Below are positions 20,954 through 62,102 of a stretch of DNA of 64,000 nt, piece by piece (the stretch's first letter is position 1; every line of letters begins with the position of its first letter). Source of the DNA: Alphaproteobacteria bacterium (GTDB lineage Bacteria > Pseudomonadota > Alphaproteobacteria > CADEGL01); the NCBI GenBank assembly GCA_963666705.2, contig CAXXKO010000025.1, forward strand, positions 160,652 through 224,651, read 5' to 3'. The position numbers were made by a program, and so were the translations under genes. The notes beneath the pieces are model-generated. The model had not been told where the DNA came from. It worked only from the letters and a program-made list of their open reading frames with translations, and made no database searches.

Positions 20954-22390
20954 GTGGGCCGACCGGCATCCCGCTTCGTCTGCCAGTCGTGTGGTGCCGC
21001 GCACCGCAAGTGGGTGGGCCGCTGCGACGGATGCGGGGCGTGGAACTCGATCACGGAGGAGAGGCCCGCGCGCACGGTACCGGGCGGCCTCAAGTTGCGG
21101 CCGGCCGGCGCGGGACCCGGTGCGGCGGCGGGCTTCGTGGCGCTCGCGGGCGCATCGGCCGAAACATCCCGGCGCACCACGGGGATCGCGGAGCTCGACC
21201 GGGTCACGGGCGGCGGCCTGGTGCCCGGCTCGGCCATCCTGGTGGGTGGCGACCCCGGCATCGGCAAGTCCACACTCCTGCTCCAGGCCGCGGCGGCCAT
21301 GGCCGGCGCGGGCACCCGGGCGGCCTACATCACGGGGGAGGAGGCGGTGGACCAGATCCGCCTGCGCGCCGGGCGCCTCGGCCTCGAAGGCGCCGATGTC
21401 GCGCTCGCCACGGTGACGGACGTGGGCGATATCGTCGCCGCGCTCGACGTGCCCGACGGGCCCGAGGTGGTGATCATCGATTCGATCCAGACCATGTATG
21501 TGAGCGACCTCGAAAGCGCGCCCGGCACGGTCTCGCAAGTGCGCGGCAGCGCGCAGGCGCTGATCCGCCTGGCGAAGGCGCGCGGCTTCACCGTCGTTCT
21601 CGTCGGCCACGTCACCAAGGAGGGCGTCATCGCCGGGCCCAAGGTGCTCGAGCACATGGTCGATACGGTGCTCTATTTCGAGGGCGAGCGGGGCCACCAT
21701 TTCCGCATCCTGCGGGCGGTCAAGAACCGCTTCGGCCCGGCCGACGAGATCGGCGTCTTCGAGATGACCGATGGCGGCCTCGTCGAGGTGCCCAACCCGA
21801 GCGCCCTTTTCCTCGCCGACCGCGGGGATGCGCCGGGCGAGGAGGGCGTGAGCGGCGCCGCCGTCTTCGCCGGCATCGAGGGCACGCGGCCCCTGCTCGT
21901 CGAGGTCCAGGCCCTCGTCGCGCCGAGCTCCTTCGCCACCCCGCGCCGCGCCGTGGTGGGCTGGGACGCGGCCAGGCTGCACATGGTGCTCGCGGTGCTC
22001 GAGGCGCGCTGCGGGATGTCGCTCGCCGGGCGCGATGTCTACCTCAACGTGGCGGGCGGCCTGCGCATCGGCGAGCCGGCCGCCGACCTCGCGGTGGCGG
22101 CGGCGCTCGTCTCGTCTGTTACGGACGCGCCGGTGCCGGCCGAGACGGTGGTCTTCGGCGAGATCGGCCTCGGCGGCGAGGTGCGCGCGGTGTCCCAGGC
22201 CGCGGCGCGCCTCAAGGAGGCGGCCAAGCTCGGCTTCTCCCGCGCCATCCTTCCGCCCGCCGGCAAGCGCCCGCGCGGCGCGGTGACGAGCGGCATCGAG
22301 ATCCGGGAGATCGGGCGTCTGATGGAGCTCGTCGCGCTCTTGGCGGACTCCTCCGTGGGACCGTCCGCGCGCGCGCGCGGGATGGGCTGA
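20954..22390 (+). CDS. radA: DNA repair protein RadA/Sms
   Basis: GTG start. Zn-finger CQSCGAAHRKWVGRCDGCGAW, Walker A GDPGIGKST, KNRFG motif, Lon-like C-terminus. Confidence 0.93.
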   Translation: MGRPASRFVCQSCGAAHRKWVGRCDGCGAWNSITEERPARTVPGGLKLRPAGAGPGAAAGFVALAGASAETSRRTTGIAELDRVTGGGLVPGSAILVGGDPGIGKSTLLLQAAAAMAGAGTRAAYITGEEAVDQIRLRAGRLGLEGADVALATVTDVGDIVAALDVPDGPEVVIIDSIQTMYVSDLESAPGTVSQVRGSAQALIRLAKARGFTVVLVGHVTKEGVIAGPKVLEHMVDTVLYFEGERGHHFRILRAVKNRFGPADEIGVFEMTDGGLVEVPNPSALFLADRGDAPGEEGVSGAAVFAGIEGTRPLLVEVQALVAPSSFATPRRAVVGWDAARLHMVLAVLEARCGMSLAGRDVYLNVAGGLRIGEPAADLAVAAALVSSVTDAPVPAETVVFGEIGLGGEVRAVSQAAARLKEAAKLGFSRAILPPAGKRPRGAVTSGIEIREIGRLMELVALLADSSVGPSARARGMG

Positions 22391-59006: not shown

Positions 59007-59767
59007 CGCGCGAGTACGGGGCGCTCCTGCGGCTCGGGCTCGTCGTCCCTCCGGCGAACGCGACGGTGGAGCCGGAGATGGCGGCCCTCCTGCCCAAGGA
59101 CGCGGCGATCCATGCCGCGCGGCTGCCCGGGATCGTCGAACAGGAGACCGGGCGCGGGCTCGACGCCCGGATCCGGGGGTATCTCGCGGCCCTGCCGGAC
59201 GTGGTGCGGTCGTTCGGCGGCATGGCGCTCGACGCCATCTGCCTGATGCATACGGGCTGCTCCTACGTCGTCGGGACGCAAGGGGAAGCCGGCTTGCGCG
59301 AGGCGCTCGACCGCGCCGGCGCGGGCCATGCCTTCACCGCCGCCGGGGCCGTCGAGGCCACCCTCGCGGCCCTCGGATGCCGCCGGATCGCCCTCGTCCT
59401 GCCCTACCCCGAATGGCTCTGCGAGGCCGCCGTCGCGTATTGGGAAGCGCGCGGCTTCACCGTCGCCGGCGTGGAGAAGCCGCGCGACGTGGTGTCGATC
59501 TACGAGATCGCGCCCGAGGACATGATCGAGGCCGCCCGGCGCCTCGACCTGGGCGCGGCCGACGCCATCCTCCTCAGCGGGACCGGGCCGCCGACCCTGC
59601 GCGCCCTCGCCGCGCCCGCGCCCGGAAACGGCATCCCCATCCTGTCCTCGAACCAGTGCGTGGCGTGGCAGGCCCTCAGCCGAGTTGCGGCGGCCGGCGC
59701 GGCGCTCCCGGGCCTCTCCCCGCCGCTCAGGGACCTGGCCGACCGGCTGGCCCCGCAAAGCGGCTGA
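59003..59767 (+). CDS. Asp/Glu-racemase-superfamily protein (maleate cis-trans isomerase / arylmalonate decarboxylase-like)
   Basis: ATGA overlap with the upstream LLM gene. ...RLGLVVPPANATVEPEMAALLP...CLMHTGCSYV...ILLSGTG...LSSNQ. Confidence 0.65.
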   Translation: MTREYGALLRLGLVVPPANATVEPEMAALLPKDAAIHAARLPGIVEQETGRGLDARIRGYLAALPDVVRSFGGMALDAICLMHTGCSYVVGTQGEAGLREALDRAGAGHAFTAAGAVEATLAALGCRRIALVLPYPEWLCEAAVAYWEARGFTVAGVEKPRDVVSIYEIAPEDMIEAARRLDLGAADAILLSGTGPPTLRALAAPAPGNGIPILSSNQCVAWQALSRVAAAGAALPGLSPPLRDLADRLAPQSG

Positions 59768-59778
59768 CCCGGCAGTGG

Positions 59779-59864
59779 AAATGTCAAGGAATGTCAAGGT
59801 GAAAAGTGATTAAATTGAATGATATTAAGAGGTTACAAGATTCGGCCTCGAACCTTGACATTTC
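59779..59864. repeat. Perfect 12-bp inverted repeat enclosing an AT-rich 62-bp spacer
   Basis: GAAATGTCAAGG (59779-59790, with a second direct AATGTCAAGG at 59790-59799) and CCTTGACATTTC (59853-59864). Local GC is far below the surroundings. Confidence 0.7.
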
Positions 59865-59946
59865 TATACATTTTTCCCTCGCGATGGACACATCGATGTA
59901 TGTGGGTATTCGGTCCTGCTGAATCAAGAGCTGGATCCGACGCCCG

Positions 59947-60214
59947 CTAGAGTGGTTCCGCTTCGATCGGACCCACTCTAGCGATTGTTTCGCTCGCGGC
60001 AGCGGACCGAGTGGTCCGCGCCTGCGCGGGCGCGCCGGGCAACCGGCGGGCCGCCTTGCGGCCTGGAGCGATTCCAGTCGAGGTGGAATCGCTCTAGCCT
60101 TTTTTATCGCTCGCGGCAGCGGACCGAGTGGTCCGCGCCTGCGCGGGCGCGCCGGGCAACCGGCGGGCCGCCTTGCGGCCTGGAGCGATTCCAGTCGAGG
60201 TGGAATCGCTCTAG
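59947..60214 (+). repeat. Structured repeat array, left: one terminator-like hairpin plus two ~116-bp units
   Basis: Hairpin CTAGAGTGGTTCCGCTTCGATCGGACCCACTCTAG (59947-59981). The two units (59982-60097, 60098-60214) differ only in their first ~10 nt and otherwise match. Each is a chain of GC hairpins ending GGAGCGATTCCAGTCGAGGTGGAATCGCTCTAG, followed by a T-run. Confidence 0.85.
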
Positions 60215-60879
60215 CGTTTGCGCGCCAGGGTCAGCCCGTCGGCGAGGGGGAGCATGCTGAGGCTCACGCGCTCGTCGGCCAGGAGCTTGGTGTTGAAGGC
60301 GCGGATGGCCTCCGTCGACTCGCTGGTGTCCTCGGGGTCCGCGACCTTGCCCTCCCACAGCACGTTGTCGACGGCGATGACCCCGCCCTGGCGCAGCAGC
60401 GCGAGGCAGCGCTCGTAATAGCCCTGATAGCCGCCCTTGTCGGCGTCGATGAAGGCGAAGTCGTAGGCGCCGGCCTCGCCCGCCGCGAGGAGGCCGTCGA
60501 GGGTCTCCATCCCCGGCGCCAAATGCAGCGCGATCTTGCCGGCGACGCCCGCCTCGGCCCAGTAGCGGCGCGCGATATCGGTCCATTCCACGCTCACGTC
60601 GCAGGCCACCAGGTGGCCGTCCCCGGGCAGGCCCAAGGCGACCGAGATCGCGCTGTAGCCCGTGAAAGTGCCGACCTCGATAGTGCGCCGCGCGCCGATC
60701 AACTCGACCAGGAGGCGCATGAATTGGCCCTGTTCGGGCGAGATCTGCATGATCGACATTTCGAGCTTCGCGGTCTCCTCGCGGAGCCGGCGCAGGACCT
60801 CGGGCTCACGCAACGAGGCCGAAAGCATGTAGTCGTAAAGCCTGTCGTCGAGGTTCAACCCGCGCTTGGACACTTGCAC
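60211..60879 (-). CDS. Class I SAM-dependent O-methyltransferase (caffeoyl-CoA OMT-like)
   Basis: 222 aa, GTG start. ...ISPEQGQFMRLLVELIGARRTIEVGTFTGYSA...FAFIDADKGGY...GGVIAVDNVLW. The stop codon lies inside the last CTAG of the left repeat array. Confidence 0.85.
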   Translation of the reverse strand: MQVSKRGLNLDDRLYDYMLSASLREPEVLRRLREETAKLEMSIMQISPEQGQFMRLLVELIGARRTIEVGTFTGYSAISVALGLPGDGHLVACDVSVEWTDIARRYWAEAGVAGKIALHLAPGMETLDGLLAAGEAGAYDFAFIDADKGGYQGYYERCLALLRQGGVIAVDNVLWEGKVADPEDTSESTEAIRAFNTKLLADERVSLSMLPLADGLTLARKR

Positions 60880-60904
60880 ATGCTCCGGTTGGTGAGTGGG
60901 CGGT

Positions 60905-61283
60905 CTAGAGTGGGTCCGCTTCGATCGGACCCACTCTAGCGTTTTTTATCGCTCGCGGCAGCGGACCAAATGGTCCGCGCCCGCGCGGGCGCGCCGGAGA
61001 ACCGGCGGGCCGCCTTGCGGCCTGGAGCGATTCCGCTTCGATCGGACCCACTCTAGCGTTTTTTATCGCTCGCGGCAGCGGACCAAGTGGTCCGCGCCTG
61101 CGCGGGCGCGCCGGATGACCGGCGGGCCGCCTTGCGGCCTGGAGCGATTCCAGACGAGGTGGAATCGCTCCTTTGTCGCTCGCGGCAGCGGACCAAATGG
61201 TCCGCGCCTGCGCGGGCGCGCCGGATAACCGGCGGGCCGCCTTGCGGCCTGGAGCGATTCCAGGCGAACTGGAATCGCTCTAG
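60905..61283 (+). repeat. Structured repeat array, right: one hairpin plus three ~112-117-bp units
   Basis: Hairpin CTAGAGTGGGTCCGCTTCGATCGGACCCACTCTAG + CGTTTTTTAT (60905-60949). Units at 60940-61056, 61057-61171 and 61172-61283, homologous to the left array. The first unit ends in a chimeric, non-pairing hairpin. Confidence 0.85.
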
Positions 61284-61310
61284 CGCAGACTTGGGCTTGC
61301 GGCCCCCGGG

Positions 61311-62102
61311 TCAAGCGGACTCTTCGATGGCCTCGACCCGCGCCAGGGCGGCATCGAACGCGGCCCGCCAGGTGTTCGCGAAATCGCGAGCGCGCAGCTG
61401 CGCGAGCCCGGCCTCGGCGAGCCCGCCGGGCGTGGCGAGGGCCGCCACGACCGCGCCATAGGCGCGCGCGTCCTCGGCGCCCATCGCCGCGGCCGCCGCC
61501 ACGAAATGCGCCGCCGGCAGCATCCGCGCCGCCGCCGGGTCGAGGCCGTTGGCGATGGCCCAGTCCGCCGTCCGGCCGACGAGCTCGTGACAGAAGGTAA
61601 AGGCCACGGCGACGGCGGTGGCGACGGCGAGCTCCTCCTCGCGGCCAAGCGGCGTGACGCGCCCCAGCATGCCCAGGATCGATGCGGCGCGGGGGTGGTC
61701 GGGGAACATGACCGTGGGGCTGGCGCCCGCCGCGGCCGACATCATGGGCATGGCGCGGACGATCTCGGGCGCGCCGGCCGCCGCGGCGAGCGTGCGCCGC
61801 GAGACCCCGGCGCAGGTGGAGATCAGGAGCTGGCCCCGCCGCCAGGGCAGCCCCGCGACGACTTCGGCCGCGAGGGGCGGACGGACGCAGAGGAACACCA
61901 CGTCCGCGCGCGCGACCAGATCGGAATTGTCGCGCGCGGCCTCCAGCCCGAGGCCCACCGCGCCCGCGCCGCGTGGTGCGAGCAGGATACGCCCGGGCTC
62001 GAGCCCGGCATGGAGGAGGCCCCGGGCGATGGCGCCGCCAATATGGCCGACGCCGAGCACACCCAGCCGCCCCGCCCCGAGCCCGTCACCGCCGCTCGTC
62101 AT
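61311..62102 (-). CDS. Pyrroline-5-carboxylate reductase-family NAD(P) oxidoreductase
   Basis: ATG at 62102. ...LGVLGVGHIGGAIARGL... Rossmann motif. C-terminal ...ATPGGLAEAGL... resembles the ProC dimerisation-domain motif. Confidence 0.6.
   Translation of the reverse strand: MTSGGDGLGAGRLGVLGVGHIGGAIARGLLHAGLEPGRILLAPRGAGAVGLGLEAARDNSDLVARADVVFLCVRPPLAAEVVAGLPWRRGQLLISTCAGVSRRTLAAAAGAPEIVRAMPMMSAAAGASPTVMFPDHPRAASILGMLGRVTPLGREEELAVATAVAVAFTFCHELVGRTADWAIANGLDPAAARMLPAAHFVAAAAAMGAEDARAYGAVVAALATPGGLAEAGLAQLRARDFANTWRAAFDAALARVEAIEESA

Follow-up and report, generated by a model that had tools for sequence, protein, structure and literature searches.

What are the five repeat units that stand on both sides of an O-methyltransferase (OMT) gene in this alphaproteobacterial DNA, and how did they come to stand there? 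The repeats, called units here, are located at 59947-61283 of the 64-kb stretch that was analysed, i.e., the window. As the initial annotation had described, five units flank the OMT gene at these positions; all are on the + strand, and each measures 110-117 nt (about 115). The units are probably copies of a non-autonomous, mosaic miniature inverted-repeat transposable element (MITE) of the IS630/Tc1-mariner type. The element family is new, the kind of selfish DNA is ordinary, and the G+C-rich middle of the element is unusually conserved.

A dispersed element with IS630-type ends

The core motif occurred five times in the window against 0.01 expected, and no core copies beyond these five were found in the 64 kb. 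An exact 26-mer taken from the core served to find the loci of the family. Among the matches listed, the core (approximately 75 nt) was found at no fewer than 75 loci, i.e., at least 75, in 13 assemblies of marine or sponge-associated Alphaproteobacteria, and 87 cores were counted in total. The runs that contain the window came from sponge hosts and one sponge metagenome. The summed depth of the repeat was 200-1700 against approximately 3 for unique flanks in two sponge-derived runs, and the excess over the flanks was 200-500 times in sponge-derived DNA runs. Copies outside the window are mostly single and are placed between gene ends, against stop codons.

The full element was also searched by blastn against 72,556 plasmids, which gave short G+C-rich matches and one identical fragment of 28 nt. 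This fragment (L086), the only trace of the core in these plasmids, equals the right half of the core (GGCGCGCCGGACGACCGGCGGGCCGCGG) and lies in Mesorhizobium sp. L-2-11 plasmid NZ_AP023261.1 (record 21114-21158), where a phage tail gene and a hypothetical gene flank it. L072, a contig of 5 kb assigned to Bryobacterales, carries the element with the same flanks as a 2.4-Mb alphaproteobacterial contig (L036); the label is probably a binning error in a public metagenome-assembled genome.

The element is 115-150 bp long, contains no open reading frame (ORF), and is composed of modules that are all bounded by TA. One module is a 31-bp palindrome of two inverted IS630-type terminal repeats. The other is a T-rich degenerate end, followed by the G+C-rich core and a closing palindrome. 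A single copy thus consists of a left palindrome, CTAGAGCGGTTCCG-n7-CGGAACCGCTCTAG, a T-rich linker, the core, TCGCTCACGGCAGCGGACC-n4-GGTCCGCGCCTGCGCGGGCGCGCCGG-n4-CCGGCGGGCCGC-n3/4-GCGGCC, and a right palindrome. In some genomes the core stands behind very different palindromes or has no right palindrome. Solo palindromes were found about once per roughly 520 kb of locus flanks, and because they are so rare, the palindromes travel with the core in these genomes.

Several loci share derived changes in hairpin 1 of the core (GCGGACC-N4-GGTCCGC). At L018, L042, L043, and L046, its loop and right arm were swapped for GGCCCATCTCGGATGAATTAAGGATGGCC, a shared replacement of approximately 30 nt, and at L018, L062, and L075 its left arm (GCGGGTCCGC) was deleted. 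Indels common to several loci mean that copies multiplied after those changes; hairpin 1 is therefore not needed for spread. A tandem repeat of 19 nt, (CCTTGAGCGATTCCAGCAG)n, has arisen in assembly JADFIH by amplification of the left arm of the right palindrome, and as many as six copies of it precede the real palindrome (L021, 3100-3190; also L075, L062, and L018).

The palindromes are back-to-back IS630-type ends, 31 bp within TA borders, of the form GAG[T/C]..TTCC... Insertion sequences (ISs) of the IS630 family share these ends, i.e., C-TA, then GAGTCTTTCCG..., and finally TA-G. In the annotated IS630 copies of Rhizobium sp. N324 pRspN324b and Roseomonas gilardii pRo-1, C-TA is followed by GAGTCTGTCAG...CTGACAGACTC and then by TA-G, and the flanking C and G indicate a CTAG target with duplication of TA. 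It is established that IS630 prefers TA within CTAG, as Tenzen and Ohtsubo are reported to have found in 1991.

By a metagenome scan with TAGAGTCTTTCCGNNTYA, a complete IS of 1047 bp (L129) was found, with HTH_Tnp_IS630 and DDE_3 ORFs and the terminal inverted repeat (TIR) GAGTCTTTCCGAC. The IS630 of L084 has a similar TIR, and the palindrome arms of JADFIH, GAGTCGTTCCGAC, are identical to GAGTCTTTCCGAC at 14/15 positions. A copy and an IS630 were found side by side at L046 of JADFIH. There, the terminal CTAG of the copy is followed by TA and GAGTCTTTCCGTTTCATATTGAAGC..., i.e., the IS630 end GAGTCTTTCCGTTTC... sits in that CTAG, and the other strand carries an ORF that ends in ...DERTIDATWRRIGKLLECFSPQECANYIRNSGYASI and a stop, a 36-aa transposase fragment. 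Family scans of this fragment were uninformative, and the identification came from tblastn against annotated plasmids, in which the transposase C-terminus was 67-75% identical to annotated IS630 family transposases on rhizobial plasmids. Fragments related to the L046 transposase all had DDE_3. JADFIH therefore holds an IS630 transposase fragment in the same genome as copies of the element, adjoining one of them. A full-length IS630 with both ends was not obtained in the sponge lineage, where L084 is 5'-truncated and L046 runs off its contig, and nhmmer detected no core in 120 IS630-end loci.

A sister element was found in other metagenomes (L123, 1356-1394; L134, 3702-3830; L160, 706-830). It is composed of a TIR-only palindrome, TAG, GATTCCTTTATTTTGTCG..., and the end CCGAAAGCGCTC before TA, with a T-rich linker and an inner part of 63 nt that differs in sequence from the core. 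At L160, a full IS630 left end directly follows the sister element.

Genes around the loci were called heuristically, from G+C at the third codon position. The 5' side of the element faced 56 gene tails and 24 gene heads, and the 3' side 53 tails and 21 heads. Among intergenic contexts, 25 were convergent, 22 co-directional, and one divergent; the co-directional copies (9 sense, 13 antisense) showed no orientation bias. A stop codon lies 49-52 nt before GCGGACC where the left palindrome is present and 17-25 nt before it where the palindrome is absent, and on the other side 56 or 58 nt past the core. At these offsets lie the palindromes' outer edges or, where the left palindrome is missing, the TAG that precedes the linker. 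The ends of the element read Y-TA, GAG...CTC, TA-R. TA precedes the left end in 33/42 copies, with C or T before it, and follows the right end in 41/55 copies, with G or A after it.

Presence and absence were compared at the window locus itself. In a relative whose OMT is 88% identical (L076), the head palindrome and the first unit upstream of the gene are kept, and no array is found downstream of it; the TA of the stop codon marks the precise place of the gap. Once the left array is taken out and a single TA left in place, the window is colinear with the L076 spacer (CCGC-TA-GCG against CCAC-TA-CCT). The contigs of this relative end inside the repeat. A second strain (L080) was compared with window 59700-61400 and showed 7 differences in 1.7 kb. 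The OMT gene (669 nt) has none of them, and six fall in the repeat arrays, three of these in loops. The array differences may stem from a faster rate of change, from gene conversion among copies, or from errors in the long-read assembly of repeats. Contig joints that skip, e.g., 116 or 1192 nt came from assembled contigs of a repeat and were not used as evidence of excision.

The data show the anatomy and dispersal of the element, its end sequences and their match to IS630 ends, the abutment on stop codons, and the polymorphism of presence and absence. What we infer for this organism is the transposase, the sequence in which events took place, and whatever effect there is on expression. An IS630-family transposase encoded elsewhere in the genome would act in trans by binding the GAG... 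ends. It would excise the element and insert it at TA, preferably within CTAG, and the TA would be duplicated. Because third codon positions are approximately 90% G+C, most TA and CTAG sites belong to stop codons. As the first base of the element is G and its last is C, TA plus either end rebuilds TAG on either strand, and insertion into a stop codon would cost the gene nothing. Selection would also remove insertions outside stop codons. With each insertion one CTAG would become two, and these junctions would be open to further copies or to a whole IS630, as may be seen at L046 and L160. Recombination, slippage, or deletion between similar adjacent palindromes could then produce shared and chimeric palindromes and tandem arrays, and unequal exchange could alter the unit number.

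The array in the window and its neighbouring genes

In the window, the units form two arrays, i.e., L1 and L2 downstream of the minus-strand OMT gene and R1, R2, and R3 upstream of it. A second palindrome of 35 bp, CTAGAGTGGGTCCG-CTTCGAT-CGGACCCACTCTAG, has two copies, one heading each array (59947-59981 and 60905-60939). The features are as follows.

59947-59981, palindrome: head of the left array, two inverted IS630-type ends with arms GAGTGGTTCCG / CGGACCCACTC and one T-C mismatch; borders C-TA and TA-G
59982-60097, + strand: unit L1, whole (linker, core, and right palindrome)
59982-60062, + strand: L1 T-rich linker and G+C-rich core, with hairpins GCGGACC-GAGT-GGTCCGC, CGCCGG-GCAA-CCGGCG, and GGCCGC-CTT-GCGGCC
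60063-60097, palindrome: right palindrome of L1, CTGGAGCGATTCCA-GTCGAGG-TGGAATCGCTCTAG; with the next CCTTTTTT, it gives a terminator-like score on the + strand
60098-60214, + strand: unit L2, whole (linker, core, and right palindrome)
60098-60179, + strand: L2 linker and core, the same sequence as L1 from the core on
60180-60214, palindrome: right palindrome of L2, whose terminal C-TA-G gives the TAG stop of the OMT gene (60211-60213, minus strand)
60211-60879, - strand: OMT gene of the host (Pfam Methyltransf_3, E = 4e-72), flanked by the element but not belonging to it
60905-60939, palindrome: head of the right array, perfect 14-bp arms, then CGTTTTTT; terminator-like on the + strand
60940-61056, + strand: unit R1, whole (linker, core, and chimeric palindrome)
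60940-61021, + strand: R1 linker and core, with loops AAAT, AGAA, and CTT, and C for T in GCCTGCGCG
61022-61056, palindrome: chimeric palindrome of R1, in which a GAGCGATTCC-type left arm is joined to a GAGTGGGTCC-type loop and right arm
61057-61171, + strand: unit R2, whole (linker, core, and right palindrome)
61057-61138, + strand: R2 linker and core, with loops AAGT, ATGA, and CTT
61139-61171, palindrome: right palindrome of R2, which lost its terminal TAG and is fused directly to the shortened linker of R3
61172-61283, + strand: unit R3, whole (short linker, core, and right palindrome)
61172-61248, + strand: R3 short linker and core, with loops AAAT, ATAA, and CTT
61249-61283, palindrome: right palindrome of R3, which ends C-TA-G; the upstream P5CR-like gene (minus strand) has its stop (61311) 27 nt away

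The identity of L1 and L2 from the core onward indicates a recent tandem duplication, and R1-R3 differ from one another in the loops. The chimeric hairpin of R1, which was read earlier as a sign of recombination between modules, joins the two arm types as described, and it has the form expected after a deletion between two neighbouring palindromes. Chimeric palindromes of this kind recur in several copies in other genomes, which supports that reading.

Each unit was also said to chain five stem-loops. The hairpins are present, but the five stems cannot form simultaneously, because hairpin 2 (CGCGCC/GGCGCG) overlaps hairpin 1 by 3 nt and hairpin 3 by 2 nt. In the minimum-energy fold, hairpin 1 is lengthened by CGCTCGCGGC / GC..CGCGGGCG instead of hairpin 2 being formed. 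The T-run described behind the terminal stem was found after both head palindromes, L1, and R1, but not at L2 and R3, i.e., it is present behind a terminal palindrome only where another unit comes next. The complementarity between the 5' ATCGCTC and GAGCGAT holds, and its cause is that ATCGCTC is a third copy of the end of the palindrome arm.

The OMT stop codon is inside the repeat, as had been claimed; its TAG is the CTA of the last CTAG in unit L2. It lies there because TA with the terminal base of the element makes TAG on either strand. The gene begins with GTG at 60879, and the database gene call begins two codons later. Only approximately 25 nt (60880-60904) separate this start from the right array, and the upstream P5CR-like gene ends 27 nt past the array (gap 61284-61310). 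Since both are so close, transcription of the OMT gene must cross approximately 380 nt of repeat in antisense or else start within the repeat. The units run antisense to the co-directional genes, i.e., the operon, around them.

The low-G+C spacer at window 59768-59944, downstream of an arylmalonate-decarboxylase-like gene, has AATGTCAAGG twice in tandem and an inverted copy, ACCTTGACATT, approximately 50 nt from the tandem pair. In the 88% relative this layout is kept, with the both-sided change of TGTCAAGG/CCTTGACA to TGTTAAGG/CCTTAACA. The inverted pair could be an operator pair or a small RNA.

Conservation of the core and rival explanations

Among the five window copies, the core varies in the columns of the loops and at one base of the TGCGCG 'loop'. 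That variation falls mostly in loops is real and general, over 79-84 copies from 13 assemblies. In 84 cores, the minor-allele fraction was up to 0.4-0.65 in three loops and at most 0.11 elsewhere, save for one lineage-specific base. Variation was equally low at core positions beyond the 26-mer and in the unpaired stretch CGCTCACGGCA. In an alignment of 79 sequences, the core stems had two both-sided changes in 2137 cells. The initial annotation took such a pattern to suggest selection on structure. The loops do vary and the stems are constant; structural selection, however, was not demonstrated, since unpaired linkers are as invariant as stems and compensation is near nil. The pattern is therefore one of sequence conservation with three free spots.

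The terminal palindromes behave differently from the core stems, with both-sided changes at 12/14 pairs and 93.9% of cells paired; in 500 shuffles, neither the share of paired cells nor the covariation score came up to the observed values. This covariation is expected if both arms fit one binding protein, because each arm copies the same end sequence. It does not by itself show a hairpin.

Several points weigh against a MITE. Across genomes the core is more conserved than the element ends, which is the reverse of the usual MITE pattern and is not explained by transposase binding. In a unit without the left palindrome, the left inverted repeat is weak (GATTCTTTTCG against GAGTCTTTCCG, 9/11). 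An IS630 copy was found neither in the 64-kb window nor at other loci except L046, and none was found that matches the arm types of the window itself (GAGTGGGTCCG and GAGCGATTCCA). The filled and empty sites are not a clean isogenic pair, as the spacers differ by a 61-nt indel between the lineages. Finally, the exact 26-mer hides diverged copies.

The conservation of the core leaves three candidates, i.e., a requirement of propagation, a double-stranded module that binds protein, or a hitch-hiking functional RNA. One speculative, rather unlikely form of this is that the core of approximately 75 nt is a functional cargo (a structured RNA or a DNA module that binds protein) and that it moves between marine and sponge-associated alphaproteobacteria by joining the IS630-type ends that are recognised by the local transposase. 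If true, it would account for a near-invariant core with its linkers over 13 assemblies, for ends that differ from genome to genome, and for only three loop or spacer positions of 3-4 nt being free. That the core as double-stranded DNA offers three interrupted palindromes to dimeric proteins, with the 'loops' as uncontacted spacers and no need of a hairpin, is an improbable explanation. GCGGACC-N4-GGTCCGC, CGCCGG-N4-CCGGCG, and GGCCGC-N3-4-GCGGCC do have the form of invariant half-sites with free centres of 3-4 bp and invariant flanks (79-84 copies, 13 assemblies), and there is none of the compensatory variation that pure structural selection would allow. However, a candidate protein is not known, three different palindromes require several binders, and the subfamilies in which hairpin 1 was lost or replaced still multiplied.

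Least probable of all, and very unlikely, is that the units are small structured RNA genes or a cis-acting RNA element on the + strand, with hairpins kept by selection on RNA structure. The predicted folds are very stable (z = -6 to -12), the loops are variable over constant stems, and one metatranscriptome assembly has contigs that run through the units. These Logan contigs, the only RNA runs covered, are however unstranded and shallow, with a depth of approximately 3, and are continuous with the flanking genes, which fits passive transcription or DNA carry-over. An Rfam search, which had been proposed, gave no usable match at gathering or permissive thresholds, and the best sub-threshold hit in the window had 23 bits against a cut-off of 50. 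A scan found no promoter-like site. G-U against A-C mismatches were 1 against 15 in the left palindromes and 7 against 4 in the right, which gives no signal for the + strand. The near absence of both-sided changes in the core stems beside equally invariant unpaired linkers, the unbiased orientation to neighbouring genes, the antisense position of the window units in their host operon, and the mostly single copies elsewhere that abut stop codons all stand against an RNA as well. The suggestion of tandem small-RNA genes is thus unsupported. Compatible with a MITE, and possible although unlikely, is that the host has co-opted some copies of this mobile DNA, with the palindrome and T-run serving the gene that reads into them on the + strand as an intrinsic terminator or as a stabiliser of its 3' end. 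A terminator scan accepted two sites (60063-60107 and 60905-60949), the T-rich linker stands behind the left palindrome in single copies, copies are concentrated at gene 3' ends, and REP (repetitive extragenic palindromic), ERIC (enterobacterial repetitive intergenic consensus), and Correia elements affect mRNA ends (PMC2229807). But shuffled sequences gave 1.1 +/- 1.1 such sites, the T-run begins 4-6 nt past the stem in most single copies, and the orientation bias expected of a strand-specific role was not seen across loci. The location at 3' ends is already explained by the TA and stop-codon target.

Relation to known repeats and meaning of the family

The units had also been proposed as a novel mosaic resembling bacterial interspersed mosaic elements (BIMEs). 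A REP is an imperfect palindrome of 20-40 bp with a GTAG (or CGTC) tag at one end (PMC3733652). Such palindromes are spread by a REP-associated tyrosine transposase (RAYT) and are recognised in the form of single-stranded hairpins. This family shares with REP/BIME systems short, extragenic, high-copy palindromes at gene ends, mosaic arrays, termini that supply TAG stops as those of GTAG REPs do (PMC3733652), and arm complementarity maintained through both-sided changes. The dispersed, non-coding, modular palindromes and linkers of the proposal thus stand, but a REP/BIME identity is highly unlikely. The tag is Y-TA-G with GAG...CTC inside, i.e., neither GTAG nor CGTC, and the five units and both head palindromes are all direct on the + strand rather than alternating. 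Nearly every base of the arms agrees with IS630 terminal repeats, and the CTAG junctions are common to IS630; the ends match a DDE transposon and not an IS200/IS605-type system. No RAYT gene turned up in the 8-kb locus flanks, although no search aimed at RAYT was made.

A close parallel to an IS630-type MITE was found in another phylum. RUP (short for repeat unit of pneumococcus) is a 107-bp MITE thought to be mobilised by IS630-Spn1 (PMC2229807). It is small, non-coding, and intergenic, has about 100 copies, inserts at TA, carries terminal repeats close to those of an IS630-family IS of the same genome, and is found beside or inside ISs (PMC2229807). The element described here likewise has arms identical at 14/15 to an IS630 TIR, TA flanks, and an IS630 in a junction CTAG. 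It has no sequence similarity to RUP, and unlike RUP, it is made of modular TIR-only palindromes and a core unit, occurs in tandem arrays whose palindromes are shared or chimeric, is less conserved at its ends than in its G+C-rich multi-hairpin core, and lies flush on stop codons.

The Correia/NEMIS elements of Neisseria are also MITEs with TA duplication and terminal inverted repeats; their transcripts fold into long hairpins, and an internal segment distinguishes their size variants (PMC2229807). They differ in their 24-26-bp TIRs, an IHF site, and the absence of an identified transposase, and have neither sequence similarity to this element nor comparable tandem arrays. The alphaproteobacterial IS630 copies (Rhizobium, Roseomonas, and L129) have the same termini, TA, GAG[T/C]...CTC, TA, with flanking C and G. 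These ISs, however, are approximately 1.05 kb long with an HTH_Tnp_IS630 and DDE_3 transposase, whereas the element has 115-150 bp and an unrelated inner sequence. Integron attC sites were rejected, as there is no R/L box pattern and the units are not downstream of cassettes in one orientation. CRISPR was considered and dropped, and retron or group II intron fragments were rejected for lack of an Rfam signal and the wrong context.

The family breaks short-read assemblies of these symbiont genomes, rewrites stop codons, and marks strain-level differences. Its recognition should therefore improve the annotation and binning of sponge-associated Alphaproteobacteria. The core, with its conserved sequence and three free loops, is the point that deserves the attention of specialists. 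As an IS630-type MITE, the family would be an example of a TA/CTAG-specific transposon that lives on the stop codons of a high-G+C genome at no cost to the host, and of insertions that create new targets and thereby seed arrays.

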